Positions 7,992 through 44,595 of a DNA stretch of 45,040 nucleotides are shown here, piece by piece. Within the stretch, counting starts at the first letter, position 1, and the number at the start of each line of letters is the position of its first letter. Source of the DNA: Candidatus Sumerlaeales bacterium (lineage in GTDB: Bacteria > Sumerlaeota > Sumerlaeia > Sumerlaeales > Sumerlaeaceae); the NCBI GenBank assembly GCA_038243585.1, contig JBBSQY010000026.1, positions 1-45,040 of the forward strand, in the 5' to 3' direction. The notes beneath the pieces were generated by a model, which was not told the origin of the DNA, searched no databases, and saw only the letters and a program-made list of their open reading frames with translations. The position numbers and the translations under genes were made by a program.

Positions 7992-9488
7992 GTGATAAAG
8001 AAATTATTAGGCACGGCAGCGATTTTCGCTGCGCTTGGGTCCGCCGGAGCGGTAGTTATAGTAGACGGTGTAGCTAACGGTGATGTCGATGGTCTGTCGC
8101 CCTTTGAGACCCTGCAGGCTGCGGTACAGTTTGCCAATTCCGGTATTGAGACCGTAATCGAAATACGGACTAATGAGCTACCCGGCGGCTTATATTTTGC
8201 CGACACGCCGTTAAACCACGATCTGACCATTCAGGCAGGTGCTGGGTTTACCCCGGTCATTAAAGATGCAGTGCACTTCCTGCCAACGAATGAAGTCAAC
8301 CTGGTGACCTTAAAAGACATCACAATTTCAACAAACCTGGATTTGCCAGTAGATGCCCCGACGACCGGCGCGCTACACGTAGGCTGCAACCTGACAGCCA
8401 TCAATTGTATCTTCAACAGCAACTGGGAAACCCTTGCAAAAAACTTTGCTGTTTCCTGCGCCGTACCTAGCGCAGGAACTGTTTCCACTCTTACCATGAC
8501 GTCCTGTACGCTTAAAGGGCAGGGTGGTCTGGAAACTGGACGCGCTGCGCGTGAGCATTTCCTTGATCGATGCCTGATCGACGCTTATCAGCCGACCGGT
8601 GAATCCTTTCAAGCCCTTGGCATAACAAACGCGCGAAATTTCCGGAGCGGCCCTAAACTCACATCAGGCGGCCAGCCTGTGGATGCGCGTATGGATGGCG
8701 CCGCAGGGTTCTTTGTTATTGAACAACCTCGCAATGTTACATTAAAAGACACTATTGTCCGTGCCGGAACGGTGATCGCCTGGCCCACTTCCAAAGAAAG
8801 TGGTACGTATAATACGAATGCAAACAACGTGTTCGGCCGTATCACTGCCACAAACTGCGTCTTCGACACCGTTCGCAATCCGGAAAAACAAGCGTGGCCT
8901 TCTGGATTTGGTGCTAGCACGTTGCCCGATAATCAGGACATTAATTGTGCTTTTACTCACTGTACTTTTCGTGCAACCAGCCCTGCGGAAACAACAGTGG
9001 CTGCGCAAATGAAAGCAGCCAATGGATTAATCTATTTTCCGACTAACGATCTGGGCACACCAATCGTTAACTTTACAAACTGCCTGTTTGACGCTCCATC
9101 CGTCGACTACCTTATGTTCGATGTATCCACCCACACAGCTTTGTCGGGCGATGGAAACACCTACCACTATCTAAAAAACAGCACGCATCACCGTGGTGTC
9201 ATATCTGGTGGCGGAACTTATCCTGCTCGGACACCCTTTGAACTCACTCAACGGACAGATATTACAGAGCTCACCCTAAGCTCACCGACATTCGTTGATA
9301 GCGATGGGAACATTGTAATTGTCGATCCGCGGATCGTTGCCAATGCGGTCCCAACTGTGCCCGCAGTGACGAAAGACATCCACGGTGACTCACGCCCAAT
9401 GCCTGTGTCTGCTCTAAAATCTGATATTGGTGCTGACGAAATCGACGAAACCCCACGTGCGTCGGTTAATGACTGGTCGGTTTACTAA
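7992..9488 (+). CDS. Secreted protein with probable right-handed beta-helix (pectin-lyase-like) fold and C-terminal VxDWxxY motif
   Basis: GTG start after AGGAG and a Sec signal peptide ending ..GSAGA. PFETLQAAV, recurrent TxxNCxF rungs and DIHGDSRP...SDIGADE (resembles the choice-of-anchor-Q-type ending of beta-helix proteins). Ends SVNDWSVY. Confidence 0.75.
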   Translation: MIKKLLGTAAIFAALGSAGAVVIVDGVANGDVDGLSPFETLQAAVQFANSGIETVIEIRTNELPGGLYFADTPLNHDLTIQAGAGFTPVIKDAVHFLPTNEVNLVTLKDITISTNLDLPVDAPTTGALHVGCNLTAINCIFNSNWETLAKNFAVSCAVPSAGTVSTLTMTSCTLKGQGGLETGRAAREHFLDRCLIDAYQPTGESFQALGITNARNFRSGPKLTSGGQPVDARMDGAAGFFVIEQPRNVTLKDTIVRAGTVIAWPTSKESGTYNTNANNVFGRITATNCVFDTVRNPEKQAWPSGFGASTLPDNQDINCAFTHCTFRATSPAETTVAAQMKAANGLIYFPTNDLGTPIVNFTNCLFDAPSVDYLMFDVSTHTALSGDGNTYHYLKNSTHHRGVISGGGTYPARTPFELTQRTDITELTLSSPTFVDSDGNIVIVDPRIVANAVPTVPAVTKDIHGDSRPMPVSALKSDIGADEIDETPRASVNDWSVY

Positions 9489-9521
9489 TCAGGTCTATTA
9501 ACCAATCTACTTCAGTTTGCT

Positions 9522-9567
9522 ACCCAGCCGGATACGCTAAATTATTCCGGCATTCGGCTGGGTTTTT
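9522..9567 (+). terminator. Probable intrinsic terminator (large loop)
   Basis: ACCCAGCCGGA / TTCGGCTGGGT stem followed by Ts. Confidence 0.6.
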
Positions 9568-9657
9568 ATAGAGACGAAAACAGGCTCGAATATGCTGTGA
9601 CGGACATCCGATTTATATTATTTTATTATTATAGTTACGTTAGAAAGAGATTAATCG

Positions 9658-10377
9658 ATGAAAAAGAGCTTCACCCGCCAATCCGGCGGGTTCACCTTAA
9701 TCGAGCTGCTCATCGTAGTTGCCATTATCGCAATTCTTGCGGCTATTGCCGTTCCGAATTTTCTGGAAGCACAAATGAGGGCAAAGGTATCGCGGGTAAA
9801 GGCAGATCATCGCACCATTGCAACTGGTCTGGAAGTTTACCACATTGACACCAATGCATATCCACTAACCAACTTCGATAACCGTTCGTTAACTTTTAAA
9901 GTCGGTGGAGGATTCCAACTTACGCTGGAGCGTCTGACGACCCCAATATCGTATTTGACTGGGGAATCGGCCTTTGTTGATCCATTTGATCCTGCGAGTG
10001 GAAATATCTATTATCGCGGTCCCGATCTTGATACTCCATTTGTCTTAAGCACATCCGGTGATGCGCGGACAAACCGCACATATTGGTACACAGCGTGGAC
10101 CGCGGATAACATGAAAACGTGGAGCAGTATCGGCACCGCTAATAACACGCCAAGCTGGTATTTTTTGGAGTCTGCCGGGCCAGATCGTCGGTTTCATTTG
10201 ACCGCAGAGTTCCTCCGTACTCTCACGGCCGATAATGACTTCAACCGTAAGCGGACGGGGAAACTTTTCTACGACGCCACAAATGGTACGGTGTCTCGCG
10301 GTAGCATTTGGCGTGGTGGCGGAAGCCCACCATCTGTTGCCCTGTCGTTTTATCATCTTCTGCACTCGTACAAATAA
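9658..10377 (+). CDS. Prepilin-type N-terminal cleavage/methylation protein (PulG/type IV pilin-like), paralog 2
   Basis: ..RQSGG/FTLIELLIVVAIIAILAAIAVPNFLEAQ, LTTPISY, and ESAGPD...YDATNGTVSRGSIWR. Confidence 0.9.
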   Translation: MKKSFTRQSGGFTLIELLIVVAIIAILAAIAVPNFLEAQMRAKVSRVKADHRTIATGLEVYHIDTNAYPLTNFDNRSLTFKVGGGFQLTLERLTTPISYLTGESAFVDPFDPASGNIYYRGPDLDTPFVLSTSGDARTNRTYWYTAWTADNMKTWSSIGTANNTPSWYFLESAGPDRRFHLTAEFLRTLTADNDFNRKRTGKLFYDATNGTVSRGSIWRGGGSPPSVALSFYHLLHSYK

Positions 10378-10396
10378 CCTGGGTTTTCAAAAACGC

Positions 10397-10430
10397 AAAA
10401 AGCCGGATCTGAGATTTCAGATCCGGCTTT
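10397..10430. terminator. Bidirectional intrinsic terminator
   Basis: AAAGCCGGATCTGA / TCAGATCCGGCTTT inverted repeat between the convergent pilin gene and tsf. Confidence 0.88.
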
Positions 10431-10450
10431 AACTTTTGCTGCCTGTTTAA

Positions 10451-11338
10451 TTAATCTTCCGTTTCCGCTGCTGCGCCTTCGCCCAGCTGGTAACGGACAA
10501 AGCGACGCAAAGTCAGACCGTCGGCACCGTGGGCTTTGCCGGCCTCTGATACTACGGCTTCGACCTTCTTGTCAGGATCCTGCACATACGCCTGCTCAAG
10601 CAGACACACTTCGCCATAATACTTGGCGATGCGGCCGTCCATGATCTTGTCGATGATCTGCTCAGGCTTGCCTTCATTAAGCGCCTGGTTGCGGAAGATG
10701 CCTTTTTCAATTTCAAGAGCTTCCGGCGAAACCTGATCACGGCTCAGGCAGGTAGGATTCGCGGCGGCCACATGCATCGCGATTCCGCGGGCAGCCTGCT
10801 GAAATTCCGGATTACCGGCCAGGCTTGCGCCACCGGCAAATTCCACCAGCACGCCGATTTTGCCCGGAGGGTGGATATAAGATACAATGACGCCGTCAGT
10901 GGAATCCAATTTGGCAGCCCGGCTAACAACAATGTTCTCGCCGATTTTTGCGATGGCATTTTTAACGACCTCAGCAACAGTCGAACCGTCAAGCTGGGTA
11001 GTTAAAACATCTGTGCCCTCTGGGACGGTTACGGCATGCTGAGCAATTTTATCCGCGAGCGCCTTGAAGTCGTCATTGCGGGCGACGAAATCGCTTTCGC
11101 TGTTGATCTCAAGAAGAGCGCCCTGCCGGGAATCCGGGCTGAGAGCGGCAACGATAAGACCCTCTTTGGCCGCACGGCTGCCACGCTTAACAGCGATAGC
11201 CTCGCCGCGTTCACGAAGCAGCGCCATGGCCTGTTCAGAATCTCCCCCGGCCTCGGTCAGCGCCTTTTTACAATCCATCATGCCTGCGCCACTTTTTTCG
11301 CGCAGTTCCTTCACCATCAGTGCGGTGATCTCCGCCAT
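10451..11338 (-). CDS. tsf: Translation elongation factor Ts
   Basis: MAEITALMVKELREKSGAGMMDCKKAL, EINSESDFVARN, IAMHVAAANP and EVCLLEQ. Confidence 0.98.
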   Translation of the reverse strand: MAEITALMVKELREKSGAGMMDCKKALTEAGGDSEQAMALLRERGEAIAVKRGSRAAKEGLIVAALSPDSRQGALLEINSESDFVARNDDFKALADKIAQHAVTVPEGTDVLTTQLDGSTVAEVVKNAIAKIGENIVVSRAAKLDSTDGVIVSYIHPPGKIGVLVEFAGGASLAGNPEFQQAARGIAMHVAAANPTCLSRDQVSPEALEIEKGIFRNQALNEGKPEQIIDKIMDGRIAKYYGEVCLLEQAYVQDPDKKVEAVVSEAGKAHGADGLTLRRFVRYQLGEGAAAETED

Positions 11339-11460
11339 CTTCAAATGTTTCCTTTCGTAAATAAACCTAAATCTCTAACGCAGGGACGCGGAGGGGATAG
11401 TTCTTTTGTTTGCTTTTCCTTCGCGCATTTACGCCTTTGTATCAAATTCTTTTGTTTGGA

Positions 11461-14100
<2,640 letters not shown>

Positions 14101-14611
14101 TCATAGGAAAGCCCCCGCGAAGGGGGGCTCAAAAAACCGGCAGGGCCGGACAACGCCATTGATTGATGGCTATTACCCAAACCAGTTTGCAAGTATGAAA
14201 TTCACTGCCTTCCTGCCGTCGGGTGATGGTGTAATTGGCGTGTATAATTGGAATTAAAAGGTTTAGCCAAACCCTAAGGCGATTTTTATGGAACATTTGT
14301 TCTTTCCTTTGGGGCGGAATCGCCAAATTTCAGAGTTTGGCTCTTTCTGGTTGGCAAAAACGATATGAACTTAACTTATAAAAGCCTAATTTGTCAACTA
14401 ATGATATATGACATCGCGGAGTTCGATATTGCACCGTCTTGGAACGAAGCCGATTGATCATTGTCTGTTGTTCGTTGCAGACAACTACTCTGCGATATAA
14501 GTTTACAGGCCCGAAATAAGACGTGCAGGTTCAGCTCTAGATGCGACTGCTATTTTCTGAATTGAAATTTTAATAAACGCGCGCAACTTACGGTTCCATT
14601 GGGAGAAGTAC

Positions 14612-16549
14612 ATGAGGTTTAGACAAAAGCAGGTAAAGTGTGCCGCGAGAGATTTGCGCGTGGGGATCCCTAACCTGGAGTTGCGACGCAGTGTTTATCC
14701 GGCGATTGTGGTGGGTATTTTAGGTTCGGTTTTTTGTATTGAACCGGCCTTCAGCCAGACAACCAGCCCTCTTGAAATTTTAAGTGGGGCCCCAAAAGTA
14801 CGGCTCGACGATCCAGAGCCAACGCCGCGACCGGTCGACCCGGTGCCTTATGTACCGCCTCGAGGCCCAGCTCCTGTTATCAGACCTGTGCAACCGGCGC
14901 TTACTCCTTATGCCGGGACTCGTGTCGGCGGCGCCCCCGCATCCCAGCCAGATCCCTACTATCCACCTGCGACCCAGGCTCCACGATTTGTCACTCCGAC
15001 CCCAACGCCGCGGCCAATACTTGGACCAGAAGATGTTAATCCCAAGCCTAAAAAAGGGTTTGTGCGCGGCCTGATCAATGCTATACCTTTTGTGGGTGGC
15101 GACGATGATGAGGAAACGCCAGTTCCTGCCCCACCGGCACGATCAAACAATCAGAGTGACCACACGCCTGACAGGGATAATCCCGCCAGCGGTTCAACAA
15201 TATATCGTGGCTATGACGCCGCCCCTCCCCATGATCCCGCTGAAGAGCCACTATTGCTGCCTCCCGGCTCCACTCCTTTGCCCTCAGTATATCCCAGCGA
15301 TCCGGAACCGTCGTCACCTCCCATTATGACCCCCACACCACGCGCTGCAGATCCATCATTTGACGACGCTGTTAGAGATCTTGATGATCCAATTAGACCA
15401 GATGGCGGCACAAGTATTGGCACTCCGGGACGTCCCGACGAACCGTTAAGCAATGCCCCTGTCCTGACTGTAAAACGCGAATCGGATAGCACCAGTCCTA
15501 CGTATACCCAGCCTGCGCCTCCTTCCGGCAAGTCGCCGGCGCTTTCTCCGCCCACTATCGATCCAACCCCAAAGCCTCTGGAGCGAGCCACCACTTCGGT
15601 TCTAATCCAGGAGTCGCGGCCATCATCAGATTCTCTCGGCCCAGAGCCGGATGCTTCGGCGACGTCGCTTAAATCTTTCGATCCGACGGCTACTCCTGCG
15701 CCGGACCCGGTCGCTGATCAAACTGCGGTTGATGATCTGCTGACCAGTCTGGTCATTGAGCAGGCGGACCTGGGAATGCCAAATCCTACGTATGAGCAGA
15801 ACGCATCCGTTCTGGCAGAGTTTCAAGACGCTGTGCGTAAAGCCCGCGCAGACGATCATGCCGGGGCCGCTCAGGCTTTTCGCGATTATGGACTGAATCA
15901 CCCATCATCGGGCCTTGCTCCCCGTGCCTATTTCCTCTCAATAGTTTTTGAGACAAGCCGCAGCAAGGCAAAAGAAAATCTGGAATCATTGCGTCGCCTC
16001 TTTCCGGAAAGTCGTTACTTGAAAGAAGCGGAAACCCGTCGCACGGATATCGCTGCGTCGCCGGCGCCGGATGCCGAAGCCGTTGCCGCACCGATAGAGG
16101 CACCTCGCGAGAAAGTAGTTCGTCTCGAAAAGGAATTAACTGCCGCGGTTGGCGACGCGGCTCGGGAGCCAGTTTTACGCAAAGATCTGGGCCTGACCTA
16201 TCTGGAACTGGAAGAATACGACCGCGCCTACGAGGTTTTGCGTCCCGCCGCAGAGATGTCCGCGGGTCAGCCCGCCGAGGGCGAGGTGTTACTTGCTTTG
16301 GGGCGGGTGATGGTTGGCCGAGGCGAAACGGTGCAGGCAATCAGCCTTTACGACGCGGTTGATCAAAAGTATCCTGACCTGATCTACAAGGACGCGCCGT
16401 CGGCCTGGAGTGTCGGCCTCGCTTTTGAAGGCGGCGGACGCTACAGCAAGGCCCGCACGATTTATAACACCCTGAGACAACGCTGGCCAGAGTCAGTCGA
16501 AGCCGGCTGGGCCACGTCCCGTCTTACGGATTTAGCCTCACTTCAGTAA
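14612..16549 (+). CDS. Exported protein with a long Pro-rich disordered N-terminal half and C-terminal TPR-like (BamD/CpoB-like) helical repeats
   Basis: Hydrophobic stretch ending AFS, then a P/D/S/T-rich region. C-terminal repeats include HPSSGLAPRAYF, FPESRY, LGLTYLELEEYDRA and WPES. Confidence 0.7.
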   Translation: MRFRQKQVKCAARDLRVGIPNLELRRSVYPAIVVGILGSVFCIEPAFSQTTSPLEILSGAPKVRLDDPEPTPRPVDPVPYVPPRGPAPVIRPVQPALTPYAGTRVGGAPASQPDPYYPPATQAPRFVTPTPTPRPILGPEDVNPKPKKGFVRGLINAIPFVGGDDDEETPVPAPPARSNNQSDHTPDRDNPASGSTIYRGYDAAPPHDPAEEPLLLPPGSTPLPSVYPSDPEPSSPPIMTPTPRAADPSFDDAVRDLDDPIRPDGGTSIGTPGRPDEPLSNAPVLTVKRESDSTSPTYTQPAPPSGKSPALSPPTIDPTPKPLERATTSVLIQESRPSSDSLGPEPDASATSLKSFDPTATPAPDPVADQTAVDDLLTSLVIEQADLGMPNPTYEQNASVLAEFQDAVRKARADDHAGAAQAFRDYGLNHPSSGLAPRAYFLSIVFETSRSKAKENLESLRRLFPESRYLKEAETRRTDIAASPAPDAEAVAAPIEAPREKVVRLEKELTAAVGDAAREPVLRKDLGLTYLELEEYDRAYEVLRPAAEMSAGQPAEGEVLLALGRVMVGRGETVQAISLYDAVDQKYPDLIYKDAPSAWSVGLAFEGGGRYSKARTIYNTLRQRWPESVEAGWATSRLTDLASLQ

Positions 16550-16630
16550 GTTCCGGGCGCGAATTGTGCTGTTGACACTGCCAGTTCGTACCAATATCCG
16601 TAACGTCATACCGTTAAAGGAATCTCTGCT

Positions 16631-17449
16631 GTGTTATTTTTTCAACCTTCCATATCCGAAAAATCGCTTCTGTTTGCCGTTGGAATTATCGGCGCAATGC
16701 TAACCCCCGCCGTAGCCCAAGTGGCCACCGTACAGGTTCCCGCTGCTGCCCCTCAAAGTGACCGCCTTGACAACGGCACTCTGGTTCAGCGTGGAGTCAC
16801 GCTGGGTGTCGGCGGAGCCGCAGCAACTTATGGGGTCGGGAAAGTTAGTGGAGCCGCCAAAGGCTTGGTCAATGTTGGTAAGGTCCGAAATGTTGCTCAC
16901 TGGGGACCGGCGACTGCAAGCGTTCCAATATTTGGCAAGGCGGCCGCCGGCGGCCATATCATTCCGACCACTATCGGCCAGGTGCCAGTAATGGGTTATG
17001 TCGTAAATCGGGTTCCCGTAGTCGGGCCCGTTATCGCTGGACCGGCAAACCCCATATTAGTGGGCGCCGTTGCCATTGACAATTACGTGATCCCAAAATA
17101 CTCACCTTGTGGATATACAAAAAGCAGCATCGTTGCAGTCACCAATGACTTTAACAGCCCGCCAAAGCTGCGCGGATATGTCAATTATCTCGCGCCTTTG
17201 CCATACACCCACCCCCCTATATATAGCCCTGCAACCCTCAATACTGATTTGCCGGCGGACGTTGCCTATATTGATGGCGTGGCCCCACATACATTGGTCA
17301 GCGGCATGACTCTTCCCGGTTCAGCAACGCCTTATCAGACGGATTCCTCACGATCCGATTACGCAGGCGCCGGGACCGGCGGCGGACTCGGACCTGCAGC
17401 CTCCACTAATCCGACCGGCGGCTTGTACTCGGTTAATACAACACCTTAA
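16631..17449 (+). CDS. Hypothetical secreted Gly/Val/Pro-rich protein
   Basis: GTG start after AAGGA and a signal peptide ending AVA. Gly-rich hydrophobic segments; no family recognised. Confidence 0.6.
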   Translation: MLFFQPSISEKSLLFAVGIIGAMLTPAVAQVATVQVPAAAPQSDRLDNGTLVQRGVTLGVGGAAATYGVGKVSGAAKGLVNVGKVRNVAHWGPATASVPIFGKAAAGGHIIPTTIGQVPVMGYVVNRVPVVGPVIAGPANPILVGAVAIDNYVIPKYSPCGYTKSSIVAVTNDFNSPPKLRGYVNYLAPLPYTHPPIYSPATLNTDLPADVAYIDGVAPHTLVSGMTLPGSATPYQTDSSRSDYAGAGTGGGLGPAASTNPTGGLYSVNTTP

Positions 17450-17466
17450 TTCTCTCACTCCATGTT

Positions 17467-17500
17467 CTGGGAACGGGGTGCAACGGCACCCTGTTCCCAG
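17467..17500. terminator. Strong hairpin between convergent genes
   Basis: CTGGGAACGGGGTGC / GCACCCTGTTCCCAG, without a clear U tract. Confidence 0.55.
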
Positions 17501-17543
17501 TGTAAGTCAAGCTTGACCCATTAATAGTCGCGATCTCTTCGGT

Positions 17544-29789: not shown

Positions 29790-29804
29790 GAGATACCTTA
29801 AACC

Positions 29805-30305: not shown

Positions 30306-30327
30306 TTTCCAGTAACTAAAGAATCTG

Positions 30328-34482: not shown

Positions 34483-34601
34483 AGTAAAATGAGCTACATC
34501 CGGCTCCCCGGATTTATCAATATCCGTCAGTTTCAACATTATGAATCAACGAAACGACTTTTGGTTTCTGCCAGATAAAGTTAAAGATCGAGGGCGTTCG
34601 G

Positions 34602-35426
34602 ATGTCTCCATTTGAAAAGACGGTGGGTTTCATTGGATCGGGCAATATGGCCCGAGCTATAATTAGGGGCATGATTACCACCGGGCTCGTCGCTCCCGGT
34701 CAGGTTTGGATTTCCGATGCAAACCCAGACCAGGTGGTCAAGCTGGCTGCAGAAACCGGCGTAAACGCTGTCGAAAGCAATACCCATCTGGCGCAGCAAA
34801 GCGACATCCTCATCCTGGCCACAAAGCCCCACCATGTGGTTGGGGTGATGCAAGAAATTCAAAATGTCCTTGTGCCCGAGAGACATCTCGTCATCTCGAT
34901 CTGCGCTGGCGTCAGAACGCCCACAATAGAAAATTCCGCTACAGCCGGCGTGCGTGTAATTCGGGTAATGCCAAACACACCCGCTCTCATAGGATGCGGT
35001 TCCGCTGCCATCTCCGGCGGCAAACACGCCAGCAGCGACGACTTAAAAGTGGCCTCTCAGATTTTTGACTCCGTAGGCGTATCCGTCGTGGTAGATGAAG
35101 ACAAACTTGATGCGGTCACCGGCGTCAGCGGCAGCGGCCCCGCTTACGTATTCCGGTTTATGGAAGCACTCCTAGCGGCCGCCGAGCAGCAAGGTCTAAC
35201 CCGCGAAGAAGCTCACGTTCTCGTTCCACAGATGGTGCTGGGCGCCGCGCGTATGGCCGTAGAAGGGGAGCGGAGCCTTGAAGACCTGAGACAAGCGGTA
35301 ACCACCCCAGGCGGCACAACCGCCGCCGGTCTTCGCGTGCTTGAAGAGAACAACTTTATGGAACTCATCGACAGATGCGTAACCGCCGCCACGGCCCGCA
35401 GTCGAGAACTGGCGCAGGATTCCTGA
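34602..35426 (+). CDS. proC: Pyrroline-5-carboxylate reductase
   Basis: GFIGSGNMA, RVMPNTP, SGSGPAY and VTTPGGTT. Confidence 0.97.
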   Translation: MSPFEKTVGFIGSGNMARAIIRGMITTGLVAPGQVWISDANPDQVVKLAAETGVNAVESNTHLAQQSDILILATKPHHVVGVMQEIQNVLVPERHLVISICAGVRTPTIENSATAGVRVIRVMPNTPALIGCGSAAISGGKHASSDDLKVASQIFDSVGVSVVVDEDKLDAVTGVSGSGPAYVFRFMEALLAAAEQQGLTREEAHVLVPQMVLGAARMAVEGERSLEDLRQAVTTPGGTTAAGLRVLEENNFMELIDRCVTAATARSRELAQDS

Positions 35427-35531
35427 ACTCCAAGTCGTTTTCCTTCAAGAACCCATTGACAAGCGCCCGACGCGCTTCTGAGTTAGGCGCTTAAGAGCTG
35501 ATTGATTTCAGGAAGGAATCATTGACGACAG

Positions 35532-37361
35532 ATGTGGGCTTGGAAAAAGTTTCTGGCTGGGGGATGCGTGGTAATGATGCACTTGGCTGGCTGGGGCGCG
35601 CCGGATGAAAAAATGATGTCTGATGCCATAGCTCTGCGTGATCAGGGTGAGTTTGAGAAAGCAACCCGCGCCTTTCAATCCTGGCTCGATCAGAACACCT
35701 CCGGTGTAGAAGAATCAGATCGCCGTATCGTCGAATTCGAAATCGAGCGCATCCATAGAATCCGGCAGGACTATCGCCTGACCAGGGAACGTCTCCTTAC
35801 GGATATGCAGGATCGGCTGACTACCTTCACAGAAGCAGAGCTGGACAGCCTGGAACGGGAGGGAAAGCTCGACGTGCAAATGATCGACGGGCAGAAACTC
35901 TACGTAAACCCCAGTGCGTCAAACCTGCTTTTCCGGGTGCCAGGGTTGCGGGCGAGAGTCCGCAAACCCCAAAAAAATTCCGCCTACCGTCGCCTGTACG
36001 AACACATGCTCACAGCGGAAAAAGCCGCCACCCTGACAAGTTTGTCGCTGGTGCTCCCTCAGGATTTCCTCGTGACATACACGCTGACAGTTAACTCTAA
36101 CGCCGCGACCGAAGGCAAGACCATCCGCTGCTGGTTGCCGTTTATGCACAGCTTCCCATACCATGCCGACGCCGCGATTTTAAAGGCGAGTCCCGGACTC
36201 AAAGCCATTGCACCGGCGGAATATCCCCACCGGACAGTTTATATGGAGCAGACCACCGCCAAAGATAAGCCGACCACGTTCGATCTCAGCTTCGTATATA
36301 GAAGCTGGGCGCGCGTGCATAAGCCAGATGCAGCGAAAATTGAACAATATGACAAAAATGCGCCGGCCTACGCTTTCTACACGGCCGAACGGAAACCCCA
36401 CATCGATTTTTCCAACGAAGAACTTCAGCGGATAGACGCGGAAGTCAGCGCCGGCGACGGCAACCCGCTCCTTCTTGCCCGCCGGATCTTCGACTGGGTC
36501 GCAAACAACACCATTTACCAGTATGCCCGCGAATACTCCACCATAGACAACATGAGCTTTTATACAGCCTCGCGCCGCGCCGGCGACTGCGGTCAGCATG
36601 GGATGCTGTTCATCGCTCTCTGCCGTATGAACGGCATACCCGCCCGCTGGACGACCGGCTGGGAATCCTTTGCCCATAGCGGCGTCAACATGCACGACTG
36701 GTGCGAATTTTACGTCGAACCCTACGGCTGGCTGCCCGCTGATCCCGACATGGCCGTTAACATATTGAACTACTCCAATGACGAACTGACCTCCGACCAG
36801 CAAAAGACCCTTGCCGGGTGGATGTTCGGCAACCTTGACCACTACAGGCTCACGGTCAACAGCGATTTCAGCCGCACCCTGTATCCCCCCAAAACCGACT
36901 TTCGTAGCGAAACCGTCGACTTCCAACGCGGAGAAGTTGAGGCTGACGGCAAAAACTTGTATTTTGATAAGTGGAAATACAAAATGCAGATTAAGCCCGT
37001 TGACGCTAAAAGGGCAGAAGCACTCCGTAGCCAGTTTGTGCCGGAACCAGTAAAGATGCCGGCACCCACCCCAACGCCCGCGCCAACTCCAAAGCCAACC
37101 CCAATACCAACGCCCGCACCCACCCCGGCGCCAACGCCAACGCCTACTCCCGAGGTAACGCCAACACCGGCTCCAACTCCAGTTCCAACACCCACCCCAG
37201 CGCCAACACCAACTCCAACCCCAACACCAACACCAACTCCAACCCCAGCGCCATCACCAACGCCAACACCAACCCCAACGCCTGAAGCAACACCAACCGT
37301 CCAATCCGAGGCGACAGCCTCAACCGCAACCGCCGATGAGAAAACCTCCCCAACTGAGTAA
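35532..37361 (+). CDS. Secreted transglutaminase-like (Cys-His-Asp) protein with a C-terminal Pro/Thr repeat tail
   Basis: Signal-like N-terminus. Catalytic [35 protein letters not shown]. The tail is a (PT/PA)n tract. Confidence 0.85.
37059..37300 (+). repeat. Degenerate 6-bp coding repeat encoding Pro-Thr/Pro-Ala dipeptides
   Basis: CCAACG/CCAACA/CCAACT/CCAACC runs translate to [15 protein letters not shown]...PEATPT. Confidence 0.9.
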
Positions 37362-37514
37362 ACCTGCCCCGCCCCAGACACAACGCCACGAACAACCCTT
37401 TCCCGTTCTTTAGATATTTCCTTCTTCTACCGTCCTTTGCGCCCTGGCGACAAACACGTAGCTCACCGTCAAACGCGAATCCATTAGAATTCATTTCCAT
37501 CAGAAAGTCAAACC

Positions 37515-38333
37515 ATGCTCAATCACATCTGGGCGTTCCTGATCGTCGTCGGTATCCTCACCGGCCTCGGCGGAGCCGTCTATAAGGCGCAGACCGGCAC
37601 AACGATCACAAAAGTTGTCGATGGGGTAAAGGTCACCGAAACTGTCCGCTACTCAACCTGGAAACAAAAAGTCGATTCCATAACCGATGCCGGAAATCGC
37701 ATGGCCGGAGAGATGTTCGACATGGTGGGCTTCCAATACACCACCGACGACGGCAGAGTCCGCGACGGTGCTGTCGGTATCGCCATAGGCTACGTCGGCC
37801 TTATCGCGTTCTGGCTCGGACTGATGAAGCTGGCCGAAGCCGCTGGCCTGGTCGCCGCCCTGTCGCGCTTTATCTCGCCCCTCTTTCGCCTGATATTTCC
37901 CGGCGTGCCCAGGGATCATCCCGCCTCCGGTGCCATACTGCTCAATTTTTCCGCCAACATGCTCGGCCTCGACAACGCAGCCACACCCCTGGGCATTAAA
38001 GCCATGCAGGAGTTGCAAAAGCTGAACGGCAAAAAAGACACCGCCACCCATGCCATGTGCATGTTTTTATGTCTGAACGTGTCCAGCCTGACCATAGTTC
38101 CTGCCAGCATAATCGCGCTGAGAGCGAGCCAGGGCAGCGCGTCCCCCGCTCAATTCTGGCCCGTCATGCTGGTCGCCACCTTTATCGGATCGGCGACAGC
38201 GCTGCTGCTGTGTAAACTGATGGCCCGCCTGAGCCCGGACAACCCCAGACCCGGCGAACCCGGAGCAGATGACGGCAACCAGGTCGCTCCCGCCTCTCCC
38301 GCCAGCCTCGCCCATGAACAGGAGCCCGCCTGA
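37515..38333 (+). CDS. spmA: Spore maturation protein A-like membrane protein (nucleoside-recognition/gate domain)
   Basis: MLNHIW, FWLGLMKLAE, DHPA.GAILLNFSANMLGLDNAATPLGIKAMQELQ and MFLCLNVSSLT. Confidence 0.88.
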   Translation: MLNHIWAFLIVVGILTGLGGAVYKAQTGTTITKVVDGVKVTETVRYSTWKQKVDSITDAGNRMAGEMFDMVGFQYTTDDGRVRDGAVGIAIGYVGLIAFWLGLMKLAEAAGLVAALSRFISPLFRLIFPGVPRDHPASGAILLNFSANMLGLDNAATPLGIKAMQELQKLNGKKDTATHAMCMFLCLNVSSLTIVPASIIALRASQGSASPAQFWPVMLVATFIGSATALLLCKLMARLSPDNPRPGEPGADDGNQVAPASPASLAHEQEPA

Positions 38334-38908
38334 TGAACGACCTCACCCCCGACAACCTTCCCGGCTGGCAGATCATCTCCGAGATGACCTCCGGCTGGAT
38401 GATCCCGTTCATCATCCTTTTCGTAGTCTGTTTCGCCTACGCCCGCCGCGTCAAAGTCTACGAAGTATTCGTCGAAGGCGCCAAAGAAGGCTTCGACGTG
38501 GCCGTCATGATCATCCCATATTTAATAGCAATCTTCGCCGCGATAGCCCTGTTCCGGGCCAGCGGCGCGCTCGATTTTGTAGCCGGAGCCTTCGCCGCCA
38601 TCGTCGCACCAGCCGTCATGCCGGCAGAAATCCTGATGATGGCGCTGATCAAACCCATGAGCGGCAGCGGCGCCCGTGGACTTATGATGGACGTATTCGG
38701 CAACTACGGCGTAGACAGCTACCCCGGCTTTCTCGCATCAGCCATCCAGGGCAGCACAGAAACAACCTTCTACGTAGTCGCAGTATACTTCGGAGCAGTA
38801 GGAGTCCGAAACACCCGATACACCGTAGGCGTAGGCCTCTTCGCAGAACTAGTAGCCGTTATAGTATCAACAATACTAGCCTACCTATACTGGCAGACAG
38901 CCGGATAG
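38333..38908 (+). CDS. spmB: Spore maturation protein B-like membrane protein
   Basis: VKVYEVFVEGAKEG, FRASGA, PMSGSGA and GSTETTFYVVAVYFGAVG. TGATG overlap with spmA. Confidence 0.9.
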   Translation: MNDLTPDNLPGWQIISEMTSGWMIPFIILFVVCFAYARRVKVYEVFVEGAKEGFDVAVMIIPYLIAIFAAIALFRASGALDFVAGAFAAIVAPAVMPAEILMMALIKPMSGSGARGLMMDVFGNYGVDSYPGFLASAIQGSTETTFYVVAVYFGAVGVRNTRYTVGVGLFAELVAVIVSTILAYLYWQTAG

Positions 38909-39137
38909 CTTCTTCACGGCCTCGCAATTCAGAAGACACAGTTCCGCATTTTTCGGCGAAGCCGAGTGAGGTCATATGTGGACGGGAGCTTCTTCCCCGT
39001 CCACATTTAGCTTTTCTTTCTTTAGCAGTTCCTTTCTTCTGCTTTTCTTCGTGTCTTCGCGTCAAAATTTCCCAAGCCACCACTTCCAGCCCAACAACCG
39101 CCACCATCACCACCACCAGCCCTCAAAAAACAACCCA

Positions 39138-40049
39138 ATGCTAACCACATTTCTCATCTCATACGCCATCTACTGGGCAATCCTCCTGACAGCCAAAGCC
39201 ACAGCCAAAGCCCGCGCCCGCCCAATCGCCGCCACCCTAGCCGCCCACCTGCGCGTCCACATCCTCATCATCGGCTCCATCATCATGATTGCCCCATTCT
39301 ACTGGATGCTCTCCACCTCCCTAAAAGACAGCTCCAATGCCATGGCCTACCCGCCCACATGGTGGCCCGCTGCTCCCCGCTGGACCAACTACCGCGACGC
39401 CTGGAACCGCCCGGAAGTCGGTTTCGGCCGCTACTACTGGGTCAGCGCATACACCTCCGTCGTCGTCACCGCCGGCACCCTCTTCACCAGCATCCTCGCC
39501 GCCTACGCCTTCGCCAGAATGAACTTTACCGGCAAAACATTCCTCTTCTACCTCGTCCTCGCCACCCTCATGGTCCCCGGCCAGGTACTCATAATCCCAG
39601 ACTACATCATCCTCGCCCGCCTGCAATGGCTCGACAGCTACAAGGCCCTCACGGCACCCTGGCTCGCCAGCGTGTTCAGCATCTTCCTGATGCGCCAATT
39701 CTTCATGACCCTGCCAGCCGACCTCTGGGACGCCGCACAGATCGACGGCGCCGGGCGCTGGCGCTTTCTATGGCGCGTCGCCGTCCCCCTCAGCGTGCCC
39801 GTCCTCATCACCACCGGAATCTTCAGCTTCGTCGCCACCTGGAACAGCCTCCTCTGGCCCCTCGTCGTCACCAGCCGCCCCGAGATGCGAACGTTAATGG
39901 TAGGCCTGCAAGTCTTCACCAGCGAAGCCGGAGGAGAATACCACCTGCTAATGGCCGCCTCCGCCTTCTGCATCCTGCCGGTGGTCGCCGCGTTTTTCCT
40001 GCTCCAACGCTTCTTCATAGAAGGGATAGCGCGAAGCGGACTAAAGTAA
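39138..40049 (+). CDS. Carbohydrate ABC transporter permease (MalG-like), orphan
   Basis: PFYWMLSTSLK, AAYAFAR, FLMRQFF, an EAA loop (DAAQIDGA) and LQRFFIEG. ATG 39138 preferred over the ORF-track start 38976. Confidence 0.9.
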   Translation: MLTTFLISYAIYWAILLTAKATAKARARPIAATLAAHLRVHILIIGSIIMIAPFYWMLSTSLKDSSNAMAYPPTWWPAAPRWTNYRDAWNRPEVGFGRYYWVSAYTSVVVTAGTLFTSILAAYAFARMNFTGKTFLFYLVLATLMVPGQVLIIPDYIILARLQWLDSYKALTAPWLASVFSIFLMRQFFMTLPADLWDAAQIDGAGRWRFLWRVAVPLSVPVLITTGIFSFVATWNSLLWPLVVTSRPEMRTLMVGLQVFTSEAGGEYHLLMAASAFCILPVVAAFFLLQRFFIEGIARSGLK

Positions 40050-40129
40050 CATAGCCCTCCCGCCAGAAGTAGCATAGGCGTCCCGCCTGTGTAGCAAATC
40101 ACGAGATAGCATAGGCGTCCCGGCTGTGT
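40046..40129 (+). repeat. Cluster of REP-like GTAGCATAGGCGTCCCGCCTGTGT copies
   Basis: Copies at 40069-40092 and 40106-40129, with a degenerate one at 40046-40066. Core palindrome CATAGGCG/CGCCTGTG. Confidence 0.75.
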
Positions 40130-40315
40130 CCCAGTACGAAGCATCGCACAATCACGAGCAAAGTAAAAGCAATTCCAAGACGGACCAACGGTCGCCGAAC
40201 TCCTAAAGCATCGGGCAGCCTAAATCACGACACCAAGAAAATTTTAAAAAAACAAGCTTAAATCCCTAAAGCATCGGTAGCTTCTTACCAAATAGTCTAA
40301 TGAATGGAGAAATGC

Positions 40316-41755
40316 ATGAAGTCTTTACCATTATATTGTGGCATTGCAGCAATGTTTTTCGTCGGGTCAGCGTCTGCTCAAAACGTTGACGTGGAAAAGT
40401 TTGAAACGTATGCTGATACAACGTCGTTGCGACTTTTGTGGAAGAGCGTGGCTGGTAACGGAGGCGAAGTCGCCGATCTTGTGGCCACTGGTGGCGCAAA
40501 TGGCAGCGCTCAATGGGCGCAGCTTACCGATACCGGATACACAGCGGGAATTGGGGCAACTAATGTCGTTGCGGCTCCAACTGCTGGAACATATAAATTA
40601 AATTTTTACTATAAAAACGGCTTTGATGGTAAACCGCGTTGGCGTGGTCTAAAAGTAAGTCTTCTGCAGAATTCTTCGGTTGTGCAGACCGTCATAGTTA
40701 ATCCGGGAACGACAGGTGCTGCCCCTGATGTTCCTACTTGGACTTTTGCAGAAAGTGCCCCGTTCACGATTACTGGCGATGCACTTTCCATAAGAGTAGA
40801 CTCAAATGTTTCCAACGGGGCTTTAACAAACTATACAGCGGCAATAGATGAGATCGTCTTAATTAAACAAGTCAATCCGGCGCTAAGCGTTTTTCCTGAT
40901 GATCGAATTTACTTGTCTGGATCGGAAACAATTGTGGCCTCTGTCTCCGGTGGAAGCGGAACATACTCGAAGGTTGATTTTGACGTAAACAACGACGGTA
41001 GTGTTGAGTTCTCAGATACTGCTGCGCCGTTTCAGTACACGTGGAATACACTGGTGGATGTACCTGCTGGCACTTCCCGGACCCTTAGTACGACTCCCGC
41101 AAACACTGCGATACCTTTGAAAATTACGGTAACCGATAGCGCGAGTGGAGTTGCCACCCTTATTGAGAACTACTCGGTAGATAATGAGTTTGGCGGGCGT
41201 GAATCTATGGTTGTCAATGGCGACTTTAGCCAGTTCCAGGACGGAACAAATTTTGGGACGAACTTGCCTGTGGGGTGGACAACACAGTTGGTTTCTCCTA
41301 ACGCCACCTACGGACCTGCTGCTGAAAGTTACAGCCCGGCGGCTGGTCAGTCTCTAAACATTCAGTTTAGCGGTGGGAACAACGAAGACAACACCGATAG
41401 ATATACCCTTCGCACGGATGGCAAAACGGGTCGTTATCGTGATATGCAGGCAACCTGGTGGGGCAAGGGCTCTTTTTGCAGACTCTACTATGCCACAAGC
41501 ACAGATAACGGAGCGACCTTCGTGGTCTCCGCAGAAACCGCTGGCGCGGCGAACAGTAGTTTTTGGGTATTTGTAGTCGAAAGCCCAGTTCAGAGCGGGC
41601 CGGGGCTAGGATTAACAGATACCACACAGGTTTCGCTTGCCACCCATACTCTCGGCGCAGCTGCCGGTGGAGTAAGTTACTTCTGGGATGACTTGACATG
41701 GGAAGGTCTGTTGATTCCTGCAGGCACCGGCGTCAACGAGTGGAATCTCTACTAA
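40316..41755 (+). CDS. Secreted multidomain beta-sandwich protein (CBM-like / Ig-like / CBM-like) with C-terminal VxEWxLY motif
   Basis: GGAGA RBS and a signal peptide ending ASA. VEKFETY...IDEIVL, an Ig-like segment (KVDFDVN...DTAAPFQYTWNT) and VVNGDF...YFWDDLTW. Ends GVNEWNLY. Confidence 0.75.
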   Translation: MKSLPLYCGIAAMFFVGSASAQNVDVEKFETYADTTSLRLLWKSVAGNGGEVADLVATGGANGSAQWAQLTDTGYTAGIGATNVVAAPTAGTYKLNFYYKNGFDGKPRWRGLKVSLLQNSSVVQTVIVNPGTTGAAPDVPTWTFAESAPFTITGDALSIRVDSNVSNGALTNYTAAIDEIVLIKQVNPALSVFPDDRIYLSGSETIVASVSGGSGTYSKVDFDVNNDGSVEFSDTAAPFQYTWNTLVDVPAGTSRTLSTTPANTAIPLKITVTDSASGVATLIENYSVDNEFGGRESMVVNGDFSQFQDGTNFGTNLPVGWTTQLVSPNATYGPAAESYSPAAGQSLNIQFSGGNNEDNTDRYTLRTDGKTGRYRDMQATWWGKGSFCRLYYATSTDNGATFVVSAETAGAANSSFWVFVVESPVQSGPGLGLTDTTQVSLATHTLGAAAGGVSYFWDDLTWEGLLIPAGTGVNEWNLY

Positions 41756-41788
41756 GCAACACTTGTCCACTATAGATTACTGAACTGT

Positions 41789-41830
41789 GTGCAGGAAAAG
41801 GCCAAAAGCCTTTTCCTGCACTTTCTTTTT
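41789..41830 (+). terminator. Intrinsic terminator immediately before the next gene's RBS
   Basis: GTGCAGGAAAAGGC / GCCTTTTCCTGCAC followed by TTTCTTTTT, then GAGGAG. Confidence 0.9.
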
Positions 41831-41845
41831 GAGGAGCCATAATTT

Positions 41846-43414
41846 ATGCTACGTTTCATCGCCACCTTGTTTCTTGTGCTGTCAGGCACCGTGCAATTCG
41901 CCAGCGCCGCCGACACCTATTTTAAATTAGACGATACATCGATCCCCCTGGCTGTGCGGGTAGAAAAAGCGCAAGGGTTGCTTCGCGCTTGGGGATTTGC
42001 ATCTCCGGAATTCGCCGAACAGTTTGTGCTAAACGACGCCGCCAGCACAAGGAAGGTGCAACAGGCACTGAAAACTTTATTAGACCGGAACACCGATTCA
42101 GCCTCGACGGCCGAAAGAGCTTCTTCCGAAGCAGAACATTATGTAACCTGGGCCCTGGCGCGAGCCCAGATGTTAAACGGTCTGGATTTTTCCGACCAGG
42201 CCTTAAGGCATTTTTTTTCTGTTAACCCCAAACAATATCAATGTGAGCCGACGGCAAAAGTGTCTGAGCTGTTGGTGCCCGCCACCTATGTCGACACGCT
42301 GGACACTACGGCTGTGTTGTCCGAAATCGCGCACCGACTGATGTCAGAGCAGTTTGGCCGCGTCGCCTATGAGACTTCTCTTAAATACGGAAAGCCGGAT
42401 CCCGGCTTCAAGGGCGACGTGACCCAAAAAACCGTCGGCGCCGACAGGTTCAAACTTTATAAACTCGCCCAGGCCGCCGGAGGCGTTGGCGGCCCTTACA
42501 AGGTGGCCGACGGTTACCTGTTCGTTCAGGTGCATAAGATTGTTTCCAATGAGGACCAGTGTTATCAGTTCCACCACGACCAGATCGTGCAGGACTACGG
42601 CAGAGAATGGCTCAAAAAGATTTATGCAGACACCCTGACAACCGCCGCACGGCAATTAAAACCTCTGGTAACCGAAGTGACGTCCGTTCCACTGACCAGC
42701 GATATCGCCTACCTCGTAGATGGCCACAGCGTTACCTTCGCACAAGCGCGGGCGACATTGCCATTCTTGTTTGGCGATGATAAAAGCCTGCCCTTCTGGA
42801 AATCAATCCAGCGCCAGGCGCTGGAGGTAGAACTGATCTACCACAGCCAGGCAGGCCAGGCCATTCGCGCATCCGATGAGTACCGACAGCAGCTTAAAGT
42901 TCTAACCCTTCTGAGCGACGCGCAGAAACAGGTGAAGCAGGTACTCGCGCAGGAATCAACAACGGCGTCGATTCAGGCGTGGTATCAACAAAATCGAAAG
43001 CAATTTACAGAGACGACGACCGTTAGTTACACCCTGTACCGATGCGACGCTGCCGCAGGCGCGATTCCAGCGACGACAGTTTCACTTACTGCGGCGCAAT
43101 GTGCCGCGACGCTGGAAAAACTCCGAGGCGATCCCACAGTCGCCCGAAAGCCACTCACCGGCAGCCTGATATCGGAGAAAGTAACCTCTCAGACCTGGGC
43201 GTCAAGGTCGCGGGAAATCCAGGTAGCGTGCCAGGAACTCCGGCCAGGGGAGTGGTCGCAGGTCTTTTCCATCGACGCCAAACCGCAGGTTCTGCACCTT
43301 GAAGCCATTGACCGTAAAACCCCGGAGCCGGCGGAGATATGGCCAGATATAAGCGCGCGCTACGAAATGGATAAACGGATAGAGTACTGGCAGAGATTTG
43401 TCGGAATAATATAA
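41846..43414 (+). CDS. Secreted SurA/PrsA-like foldase with two degenerate parvulin-like modules
   Basis: Signal peptide ending ASA. Repeated architecture: FFSVNPKQY...GGVGGPYKVADGYLFVQV and WYQQNRKQF...ELRPGEWSQVF, resembling the YY..N...F and L.PGE.S.P...GY hallmarks of parvulins. Confidence 0.62.
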   Translation: MLRFIATLFLVLSGTVQFASAADTYFKLDDTSIPLAVRVEKAQGLLRAWGFASPEFAEQFVLNDAASTRKVQQALKTLLDRNTDSASTAERASSEAEHYVTWALARAQMLNGLDFSDQALRHFFSVNPKQYQCEPTAKVSELLVPATYVDTLDTTAVLSEIAHRLMSEQFGRVAYETSLKYGKPDPGFKGDVTQKTVGADRFKLYKLAQAAGGVGGPYKVADGYLFVQVHKIVSNEDQCYQFHHDQIVQDYGREWLKKIYADTLTTAARQLKPLVTEVTSVPLTSDIAYLVDGHSVTFAQARATLPFLFGDDKSLPFWKSIQRQALEVELIYHSQAGQAIRASDEYRQQLKVLTLLSDAQKQVKQVLAQESTTASIQAWYQQNRKQFTETTTVSYTLYRCDAAAGAIPATTVSLTAAQCAATLEKLRGDPTVARKPLTGSLISEKVTSQTWASRSREIQVACQELRPGEWSQVFSIDAKPQVLHLEAIDRKTPEPAEIWPDISARYEMDKRIEYWQRFVGII

Positions 43415-43439
43415 CTCATTCGTCCTGCCTGTGTCTATT

Positions 43440-43462
43440 CCGCCACGGAATTGGCGGTTTGT
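43440..43462 (+). terminator. Weak hairpin, possible terminator
   Basis: CCGCCA / TGGCGG followed by TTTGT. Confidence 0.4.
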
Positions 43463-43605
43463 CCTATAACTAAAGGGGGAGTGGGGAAGCGCATAGATTT
43501 AGGCGTGGAACAAAAGAATTTAAATTAGCTCTTGCAATGGGTAACGCACTCGTCTTAAAACAACTGGGTTACTAGAATTATCATTTTATAAGAAGGACTT
43601 GCTTA

Positions 43606-44595
43606 ATGAAAAAAGTATTTTTAACAGCCGCGGCAGTTGCTGCGATGATTCCCTCTGCTTTTGCTGCCAGAACCGTATCCATGGTTCCTGTAGTAGACCT
43701 AGCTGTTGTAACGCCGGGTGCAATAAATTCTGCAACCTATGTTCCAGATGGTGGCGTTCCGGGCGCGGACAAGTTCTTAACCTATTCAGCCACTTCAGTT
43801 TTGCCACCGGCTGTGTACAACACGGCGGGAACACAGCAGGGAACCCTTCCCTCGACAGGGGTTGCGCCGAGCGGCGGTCAAGGATTTTTCGCATTAACTG
43901 CCGGAGTTGATGGCGTCATTTATGGCTTCGAAAATGGTGCAGTGGATATCTGGAAGTGGGATAGTTTTTCTGACTCGACGCCAATTAAGGCCTATGACAC
44001 GCCACTTGGCTTTCAGCGCGTTGGGTCTGTAGGCGGAACCGGAATCAATACAGTTCTTGCCTTTACAGGTAATGCTACGGCTGGCAAAGTAGAATTTTTC
44101 AGCGGCTCTGCTCCTTTTACCTCCAGCGAAACGCCGACGCTGCTCGGCAAGTCTGGTCTGGCAATTAATACTGCCGGTGATGTTGCGTTTACTGTCGCTG
44201 ATACGGGTCTGAAAATTCGGAAGTTTGTTAAAACCGGTGGTGTCTGGGCAGAAGATACAGCAAACTGGATCATTCCTGGACCTATTGGCGCTGGAGCTCT
44301 CACATACGATTCTGTAAATAATGTATTGTTCTCGTCTCCACAAGCTGGATCTATAAACGGGAAAGTATACGCGTACGATGGCCTCACGGGCGGTGTCCCG
44401 ATCGGTGAGCTCACGTTCACAAATCTTCAGGGAACTGTTCCCGCAAATTGCGGAGGCGTAGCAGTACCAAATGGACCCGGCGGAACAGTCGGTTTTGCAG
44501 CGCGCGGTGCCGCCACAACCGCCACTGCTGTATTCCGTAAACTTACTTACACTGTTACCCCGGATGCCAGCGTTAGCGACTGGACATTGTATTAA
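43606..44595 (+). CDS. Secreted beta-rich (possible beta-propeller) protein with C-terminal VxDWxLY motif
   Basis: AAGGA RBS and a signal peptide ending AFA. Blade-like repeats (ALTAGVDGVIYG, GLAINTAGDVAF, ALTYDSVNNVLF). Ends SVSDWTLY. Confidence 0.75.
   Translation: MKKVFLTAAAVAAMIPSAFAARTVSMVPVVDLAVVTPGAINSATYVPDGGVPGADKFLTYSATSVLPPAVYNTAGTQQGTLPSTGVAPSGGQGFFALTAGVDGVIYGFENGAVDIWKWDSFSDSTPIKAYDTPLGFQRVGSVGGTGINTVLAFTGNATAGKVEFFSGSAPFTSSETPTLLGKSGLAINTAGDVAFTVADTGLKIRKFVKTGGVWAEDTANWIIPGPIGAGALTYDSVNNVLFSSPQAGSINGKVYAYDGLTGGVPIGELTFTNLQGTVPANCGGVAVPNGPGGTVGFAARGAATTATAVFRKLTYTVTPDASVSDWTLY

Follow-up and report, generated by a model that had tools for sequence, protein, structure and literature searches.

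Genes at the locus and their shared ending

The window analysed in this study is a stretch of 45,040 nucleotides, contig C26 of a draft genome from the bacterial phylum Sumerlaeota (genome G000; 3.43 Mb in 99 contigs, 52.5% G+C, 89.7% complete), and it carries three genes whose products, P0001, P0002 and P0003, finish on the same short C-terminal tag. A reading made from the sequence alone had pointed to these three open reading frames (ORFs) and their endings, and translation confirmed all of them (Table 1), with P0001 ending in ...TPRASVNDWSVY-stop, P0002 in ...PAGTGVNEWNLY-stop and P0003 in ...TPDASVSDWTLY-stop. That reading had also claimed Sec-type signal peptides, unrelated proteins, differing tail DNA and an ending confined to these three ORFs, and these claims stood. 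A signal peptide of the Sec type is seen at each N-terminus, and none of the three proteins shows BLAST similarity (E<=1e-5) to any other tagged protein in the genome. The tail codons, when compared, are different in the three genes, so the conservation lies at the protein level, and no further ORF with this ending was found on the contig. The link to Sumerlaeota made in that reading is likewise correct, the named relatives of the organism being Candidatus Sumerlaeaceae, Sumerlaeales and Sumerlaeota metagenome-assembled genomes (MAGs).

P0001 and P0003 have no family in Pfam or NCBIfam, P0002 gives a weak Ig-like domain match under the Pfam cut-off, and no near-length relative of P0003 was detected among 5.8 billion clustered proteins. 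In the AlphaFold2 model of P0001, which was built on a shallow alignment of 15 rows and reached a predicted local distance difference test score (pLDDT) of 77, the beta-helix extends over about residues 20-395, and the last 11 residues (488-498) have pLDDT <50 and no secondary structure. Members of the P0001 family are few, as only 19 matches were obtained among 1.84 billion representatives. Among the 15 members fetched, 12 end in W-x-hydrophobic-[YF] followed by 0 or 1 residue; of the other three, one is truncated and two have ends that resemble the tag but deviate from it. A relative with extra inserted repeats still keeps its tag-like end at the terminus. Similarly, the close relatives of a tagged GH43 protein carry the tag in 6/6 cases, one of them with two extra residues.

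Table 1. Location of the tagged genes, their neighbours and the related loci discussed in the text (aa, amino acids; T2SS, type II secretion system)
Feature	Location	Strand	Size	Remarks
Tagged gene 1 (P0001)	window 7992..9488	+	498 aa	right-handed beta-helix body between a Sec signal peptide and a variable C-terminal region; tag at the end
Tag of gene 1, SVNDWSVY + stop	window 9462..9488	+		nine-residue unit begins at Ala 9459-9461
Tagged gene 2 (P0002)	window 40304..41755	+	483 aa	signal peptide; tag GVNEWNLY 41729-41752, stop 41753-41755
Tagged gene 3 (P0003)	window 43606..44595	+	329 aa	signal peptide; tag SVSDWTLY 44569-44592, stop 44593-44595
GspG-like pseudopilin paralogue	window 9658..10377	+	239 aa	prepilin N-terminus, large head; Pfam N_methyl
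Second GspG-like pseudopilin paralogue	window 4761..5456	+	231 aa	adjoins no tagged gene
Exported PPIC-type peptidyl-prolyl isomerase (P0004)	window 41846..43414	+		SurA/PpiD-like; Pfam Rotamase_2; between tagged genes 2 and 3
AbiEii-type nucleotidyltransferase toxin domain	window 793-1782	-		type IV toxin-antitoxin; adjoins a GH15 glucoamylase-like gene; unrelated to the tag
T2SS operon	G000 C45:11740-24382			GspE, GspF (by position and size only), GspH-like, two more pilin-like, GspK-like, PilM/N fusion, GspM-like, GspD
Big-headed GspG-like paralogue	G000 C45:9595-10425		276 aa	adjoins the T2SS operon
Canonical GspG (T2SSG)	G000 C5:15179-15616		145 aa	on a contig other than that of the T2SS operon
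Giant secretin	G000 C32:28553-33631		1692 aa	TPR repeats before Secretin_N and Secretin domains
Tagged DUF1501 protein (locus L044)	G000 C1:58022-59302			twin-arginine-type signal RRTFLQG
GspG-like pseudopilin P0067	L173:1321-2058 (G002:C277)	-		ends ...SSEVAEWRVYE
Row of three tagged genes (L158)	G041:C28:1-9687			all on the same strand

Form and frequency of the tag

The genome-wide counts were made on a crude gene set of 3162 ORFs, consisting of the longest ORFs with overlaps removed. The ending V.[DE]W..[YF] closes 32 of these 3162 ORFs; since the same pattern occurs internally in only 11 places, 0.033 terminal cases would be expected, and the terminal enrichment is approximately 1000-fold. 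At the DNA level, the pattern GTNNNNGAYTGGNNNNTNTAYTRR gave 28 matches in the genome and its reversed control gave 0. We observed that the conserved stretch is longer than the octapeptide originally taken as the unit: in a position table of 34 strict cases, Ser, Ala or Thr occupies -9 in 34/34, Val occupies -7 in 32, Asp -5 in 31, Trp -4 in 34/34, Leu, Ile or Val -2 in 32 and Tyr -1 in 33, so that nine residues are conserved. The commonest residue at -11 is Pro, and the linker before the tag is short, with a mild enrichment of Pro and Thr.

A relaxed core, [VIA]..W.[LIVMFA][YF], was counted in the 2822 ORFs of at least 80 amino acids. It lies at the exact terminus in 47 ORFs and is followed by one further residue (N, D, E, Q or H) in 28; it stops two residues short of the terminus in none and three to six residues short in only 3. 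In total, about 75 of the 2822 ORFs, or about 3% of the proteome, are carriers. The sequence-only reading had given Val at -7, Asp or Glu at -5 and a terminal Tyr as constant, which is true of the three genes in the window; genome-wide, however, Val -7 and Asp -5 are not obligatory, and 28 proteins have one residue more. The form of the tag is [Ser/Ala/Thr]-x-Val-x-Asp-Trp-x-[Leu/Ile/Val/Met]-Tyr-COOH, at times with one polar residue added. Neither a membrane helix nor a basic end accompanies it: in the last 45 residues, a 15-residue window of hydropathy >=1.6 was detected in only 1 of the 75 tagged ORFs, and Lys and Arg are absent from the last six residues in 71 of them.

An aromatic residue next to the free carboxylate could also be read as the ligand of a periplasmic PDZ-type or tail-specific module, a Prc/CtpA/DegP-like protease or chaperone, that would use it for processing, folding surveillance or turnover. 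PDZ domains recognise the free carboxylate of a C-terminus together with its hydrophobic or aromatic side chain, as when DegS binds the YxF ends of outer-membrane proteins (OMPs) and Prc binds non-polar ends, and the 47/75 tails that end exactly at Tyr or Phe would suit such binding. However, the polar residue behind the aromatic one in 28/75 tails should disturb binding anchored on the carboxylate, and conservation reaches back to -9, beyond typical PDZ ligands. It is also hard to see why about 3% of the proteome, made up of stable extracellular enzymes, should be marked for degradation, and we regard this explanation as improbable.

Carriers of the tag and their export

The proteins carrying the tag are of many kinds. 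The 46 strictest carriers fall into 25 BLAST clusters, 20 of them singletons (P0001, P0002 and P0003 included) and the largest having 12 members; the non-homology of the three window proteins, which had been set as a check, therefore held. A Pfam scan of the 72 carriers outside the window disclosed mostly hydrolases and glycan-binding proteins, with GH43, GHL10, NAGPA phosphodiester glycosidases and Golvesin_C (13/72 carriers), subtilases (S8), trypsin-like, M23 and M12 peptidases, lamin-tail domains (LTD) and endonuclease/phosphatase proteins. BNR/sialidase-like propellers, ice-binding-like proteins, glucose/sorbosone dehydrogenases, nucleases, deacetylases, Kelch and FG-GAP propellers and one Bmp-type binding protein were found as well, and 22/72 carriers have no Pfam family. 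The residues immediately preceding the tag fail to align across carriers. An untagged paralogue on contig C74 ends directly after the last strand of its domain, and its tagged paralogues go on with the linker and the tag.

With regard to export, two home-made and crude signal-peptide rules were used, one too lax (40% of ORFs positive) and one too strict. Under the strict rule, 35 of the 71 tagged ORFs with a complete N-terminus were positive against 401 of 2669 others (odds ratio 5.5, p 3e-11), and in most of the 36 that it missed an obvious signal peptide can be seen by eye; under the lax rule, the figures were 61/71 for tagged ORFs and about 40% for all ORFs. Sec-type signal peptides are thus seen on nearly all carriers. 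The enrichment among signal-peptide proteins that had been proposed as a test was thus borne out. The tagged DUF1501 protein (Table 1) has a Tat-type signal, which shows that the tag is not limited to Sec substrates and also serves a protein that crosses the inner membrane folded.

These results also bear on the explanation that there is no signal at all, the shared ending being a coincidence, a legacy of paralogy or the closing strand of a C-terminal domain that the carriers have in common. Domains are indeed shared by some carriers, such as the 13/72 with Golvesin_C, and the largest BLAST cluster of 12 could be taken in the same sense. The terminal enrichment of about 1000-fold, the 20 singleton families and the unalignable residues before the tag argue strongly against it, as do the unstructured tail in the P0001 model and the terminal position that the tag keeps despite inserted domains, and we give this explanation hardly any weight. 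The tag is real, terminal, modular and carried by exported proteins, and it is almost certainly a selected feature.

Distribution of the tag in Sumerlaeota

In a sample of 75 species genomes of the phylum, the strict tag DNA pattern was present in 42, and its reversed control gave at most 1 match per genome on either strand. The pattern is abundant in the family to which the window belongs (11 of 12 other genomes), reaches 12 matches in G041, a genome of a second class, and is patchy elsewhere. A tag profile of 12 columns, with matches counted per genome, gave 38 matches in the genome of the window itself, 14 in G063 (mostly the form with one extra Glu), 5 in G014 and 2 in G019. It gave a single, noise-level match in G021, a complete genome of 6.0 Mb, and no shared ending was found in a 232-kb sample of G021 that included nine GH43 loci, which means that at least one family is essentially tag-free. 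The tag is restricted to certain lineages.

In G041, one contig holds the row of three tagged genes listed in Table 1; two of these end identically in ...STPVLDWALY, and no pseudopilin gene lies within the row.

Comparison with known C-terminal signals

The sequence-only reading had set the tag apart from the established C-terminal signals, and our data agree. The LPXTG/sortase, PEP-CTERM/exosortase, GlyGly-CTERM/rhombosortase and MYXO-CTERM/myxosortase systems likewise place a C-terminal tag on dozens of unrelated exported proteins of one lineage; their tripartite signals, however, are about 25-35 residues long and contain a hydrophobic helix and a basic tail, and the nine-residue tag has neither of these in the last 45 residues of the 75 tagged ORFs. 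The C-terminal domain (CTD) of the type IX secretion system (T9SS; TIGR04183/PF18962) also marks the C-terminus of hydrolases and adhesins that diderm bacteria export by Sec, but it is a folded unit of 70-100 residues, whereas here nine residues are conserved, the preceding ones cannot be aligned and the tail is unstructured in the model. Searches with PF14349 (SprA) and TIGR04183 gave 0 matches in the genome, and the control genomes were silent as well. With the beta-signal of OMPs, which is read by the beta-barrel assembly machinery (BAM), the tag shares an aromatic terminal residue, and Omp85 proteins are present here. That signal, however, closes a barrel, and the carriers are soluble enzymes and binding proteins, P0001 being a beta-helix; the tag also tolerates one extra terminal residue, and its hydrophobic positions (-1, -2, -4 and -7; -5 is Asp and -3 is polar) do not alternate, unlike those of the beta-signal.

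The NCBIfam models NF053834 (ultrashort_CTERM) and NF050076 (sort_motif_YLP), two putative sorting motifs, likewise appear to concern very short C-terminal endings of exported proteins that have no membrane helix and no known reader. NF053834 had 0 matches in the genome, and NF050076 had a single sub-threshold match, in a 25-aa frame unrelated to the tags. When the three window tails were compared with all of NCBIfam at E<=10, 0 families were returned. An existing family model for the tail had been named as something to look for, and none in Pfam or NCBIfam matches it; a full-text literature search found no paper on the tag. As far as these sources go, we could find no description of it.

In a further reading, the tag is a cleaved transpeptidation signal: an enzyme would cut near -9, attach the protein covalently to an envelope acceptor and release the nine-residue peptide. 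The invariant Ser, Ala or Thr at -9 and the frequent Pro at -11 do resemble a processing site, and the export signal of TcpF is also removed upon secretion (PMC10120004). The tag nevertheless lacks the membrane helix or basic tail that would keep the substrate close to an enzyme in the membrane, exosortase (EpsH, PF09721) gave 0 matches in a genome that is 89.7% complete, so that its absence is not proven, and no conserved candidate enzyme gene was found beside tagged genes. Such a signal is very improbable on these grounds.

Association of tagged genes with pseudopilin genes

The genome contains 36 pilin-like genes, 26 of which are paralogues of a single family, 190-280 aa long, that combine a GspG-like N-terminus with a large head; in Pfam, only their N-terminal methylation motif is matched. 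These GspG-like paralogues make up the largest recurring cluster within two genes of tagged genes (10 members), and 9 of the 26 have a tagged gene as immediate neighbour, a number reached in 0 of 5000 shuffles (mean 1.3, maximum 7). Seven of the nine pairs are co-directional, and their spacing runs from an 8-bp overlap to a 294-bp gap. In the window, tagged gene 1 is followed on its own strand, after 170 bp, by the pseudopilin gene at 9658..10377. No small Cys-rich or poly-Pro leader ORF was seen ahead of the pseudopilin-linked genes of the window.

Comparatively, pseudopilins are the only specific family that recurs beside tags across genomes; histidine kinases, ABC ATPases and CBM-like proteins also recur near tagged genes, and were set aside as large families that are not specific to the tag. 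A pseudopilin gene adjoins 4 of 18 tagged genes from three other families and a second class, and 2 of 26 from another genus and G041, which makes 6/44 in the other genomes pooled, where about 0.6 would be expected by chance. Counted from the pseudopilin side, 2 of 19 pseudopilin genes from other, mostly tag-positive genomes have a tagged neighbour by rule, a further one adjoins a variant ending in ...ALWSIYE that was recognised by eye, and 2 more have a tagged gene two genes away. Among 20 pseudopilin loci of tag-poor genomes there was 1 case, in G063, with a pseudopilin gene followed by two tagged genes. Tagged genes adjoin pseudopilin genes above chance, and this adjacency makes the pseudopilin at 9658..10377 a candidate partner or receptor of the tag.

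The AlphaFold2 model of this pseudopilin shows a pilin fold (pLDDT 90.5), and some of its homologues carry the T2SSG domain PF08334. A Foldseek search of the model against PDB returned nothing at E<=0.001, the best but weak matches being type IVb and IVa pilins. In the paralogue tree, it belongs to a well-supported clade of five, four of which are tag-adjacent. The window pair (7992-9488 and 9658-10377) recurs in the same genus, at G002:C65. A search for P0001 loci with a 6-row alignment gave 2 loci, both in Sumerlaeota MAGs, and the sole full-length relative there has no adjacent pseudopilin gene; conservation of the pair is thus confined to the genus. A complex prediction with the pseudopilin head (residues 36-239; 80 rows) and the last 30 residues of P0001 (21 rows) scored 0.00, which is no answer and speaks neither for nor against binding.

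One GspG-like pseudopilin of the same genus, P0067 at L173 (Table 1), itself has a tag-like end with one residue added; it is the only one with such an end among the pseudopilin relatives P0005-P0124.

Envelope machinery and other candidate readers

The organism is a diderm, and its genome has 2 Omp85 genes, 3 secretins and many GspE/PilB/PilT ATPases. The T2SS operon on contig C45 lacks GspG. The giant secretin on contig C32 represents a third secretin system, besides the T2SS and a PilMNOPQ-like cluster on contig C37. Across the phylum, secretin copies vary from 2 to 14 per genome with a loose inverse trend against the tag count: the two families richest in tags tend to have few copies (2-6), and several families poor in tags tend to have many (7-13). 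However, three families combine tags with many secretins, and the related genomes in this comparison are not independent.

The SurA-like peptidyl-prolyl isomerase P0004, encoded between tagged genes 2 and 3, was considered as a reader of the tag and rejected. Only 11 of the 75 genomes match it at E<=1e-5, most of them weakly, and clear orthologues are confined to the genus, so it is not a general reader. As in the window (40304-43414), a tagged protein precedes this isomerase in both other genomes of the genus (loci L114 and L115); the tails beside the isomerase genes there are ...VDGWKLY and ...VEGWNLY, so that Gly replaces Asp or Glu at -5.

Proposed function of the tag

Little is understood of how type II secretion and type IV pilus systems recognise their substrates (PMC10120004). 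The closest parallel is given by TcpF of Vibrio cholerae and CofJ of enterotoxigenic Escherichia coli, whose export signals are bound by the minor pilins TcpB and CofB (PMC10120004, PMC9565799). The signals of TcpF and CofJ resemble the tag in being short, disordered terminal peptides of Sec-exported folded proteins with a critical tyrosine, and the cargo gene lies beside pilin genes, as for some tagged genes here. They are transferable and read in the periplasm by a pilin; the tag is modular, and its binding is only proposed. The differences are that the TcpF and CofJ signals are N-terminal with one cargo per system and a tip minor pilin as partner, whereas the tag is C-terminal with about 70 cargoes and the candidate partners are GspG-like paralogues. 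The disorder of pilin-read signals is found again in the last residues of the P0001 model, but their N-terminal location is not.

The idea of the sequence-only reading, a short terminal tag read by an export, anchoring or assembly machine, holds as far as a short, strictly terminal tag on unrelated exported proteins is concerned; for the machine, the sole specific lead is circumstantial and consists of the recurrent pairing, in many cases operonic, with GspG-like pseudopilin genes. It is likely that the tag is a sorting or docking signal. The fuller explanation that we prefer, at a probability of roughly 30%, is a post-export docking label with the T2SS or type IV filament apparatus as the preferred route. 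The tag would act after Sec or Tat export as a flexible peptide that is recognised non-covalently and through which the folded protein is passed on to a machine of the envelope, the outcome being secretion or display. The big-headed GspG-like pseudopilin paralogues may serve as its receptors or adaptors in the T2SS or type IV filament apparatus, a proposal modelled on the binding of the TcpF and CofJ signals by TcpB and CofB. That pseudopilins or the T2SS read the tag is a tentative proposition. Rather more doubtful is its furthest extension, that the tag would be the first portable signal of linear form for secretion or display by a T2SS-type machine, with pseudopilin paralogues that dock the cargo and either convey it through the secretin or display it there.

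Several observations weigh against the pseudopilin route. Only about 1 in 7 tagged genes has a pseudopilin neighbour, and the count from the pseudopilin side, 2-3 of 19 where about 1 is expected, is not convincing alone. Tag-adjacency is not significantly clustered on the whole paralogue tree, where 57 of 500 shuffles did as well. The pseudopilin family occurs in 75/75 genomes of the phylum, nearly tag-free families included, and T2SS secretin orthologues of similar identity occur in tag-free G021, G027 and G019; being present in tag-free relatives as well, neither the family nor the T2SS secretin explains the distribution of the tag. Moreover, the crude ORF-based carrier set wrongly includes at least one protein, a cytoplasmic NAD synthase that ends in ...GWPIF.

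An alternative is a surface-retention label, by which proteins would cross the outer membrane through a general route and then bind non-covalently to an outer-membrane protein, lipopolysaccharide or surface layer. Hydrolases and binding proteins would thereby be kept on the cell, as by the T9SS CTD with anionic lipopolysaccharide (A-LPS) or by S-layer homology (SLH) anchors, although with a much shorter element. The carriers, polymer-degrading enzymes and lectin- or adhesin-like proteins, would gain from being cell-bound, the tail is flexible and rich in aromatic residues (Trp, Tyr), and a lineage-specific envelope ligand would agree with the lineage-specific occurrence and the tag-free families. 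On the other hand, no gene for a candidate ligand or anchor came out of the neighbourhood analysis, a peptide of nine residues is short for stable attachment to a glycan or protein, and the pseudopilin adjacency is left unexplained. Surface retention is somewhat unlikely.

Significance of the tag

By what means the cell selects the folded proteins that are to cross its outer membrane has long been an open question, and a nine-residue, helix-free tag would give a simple handle on it. From the tag, the secretome or surface proteome of an uncultured phylum of polymer degraders can be predicted. Its peptide can be synthesised and used as bait for the reader, and it might serve as a portable targeting tag. 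If the pseudopilin link is true, it would give the GspG-like paralogues their first function; on the furthest extension of the proposal, the expanded pseudopilin families of the phylum would be cargo adaptors.

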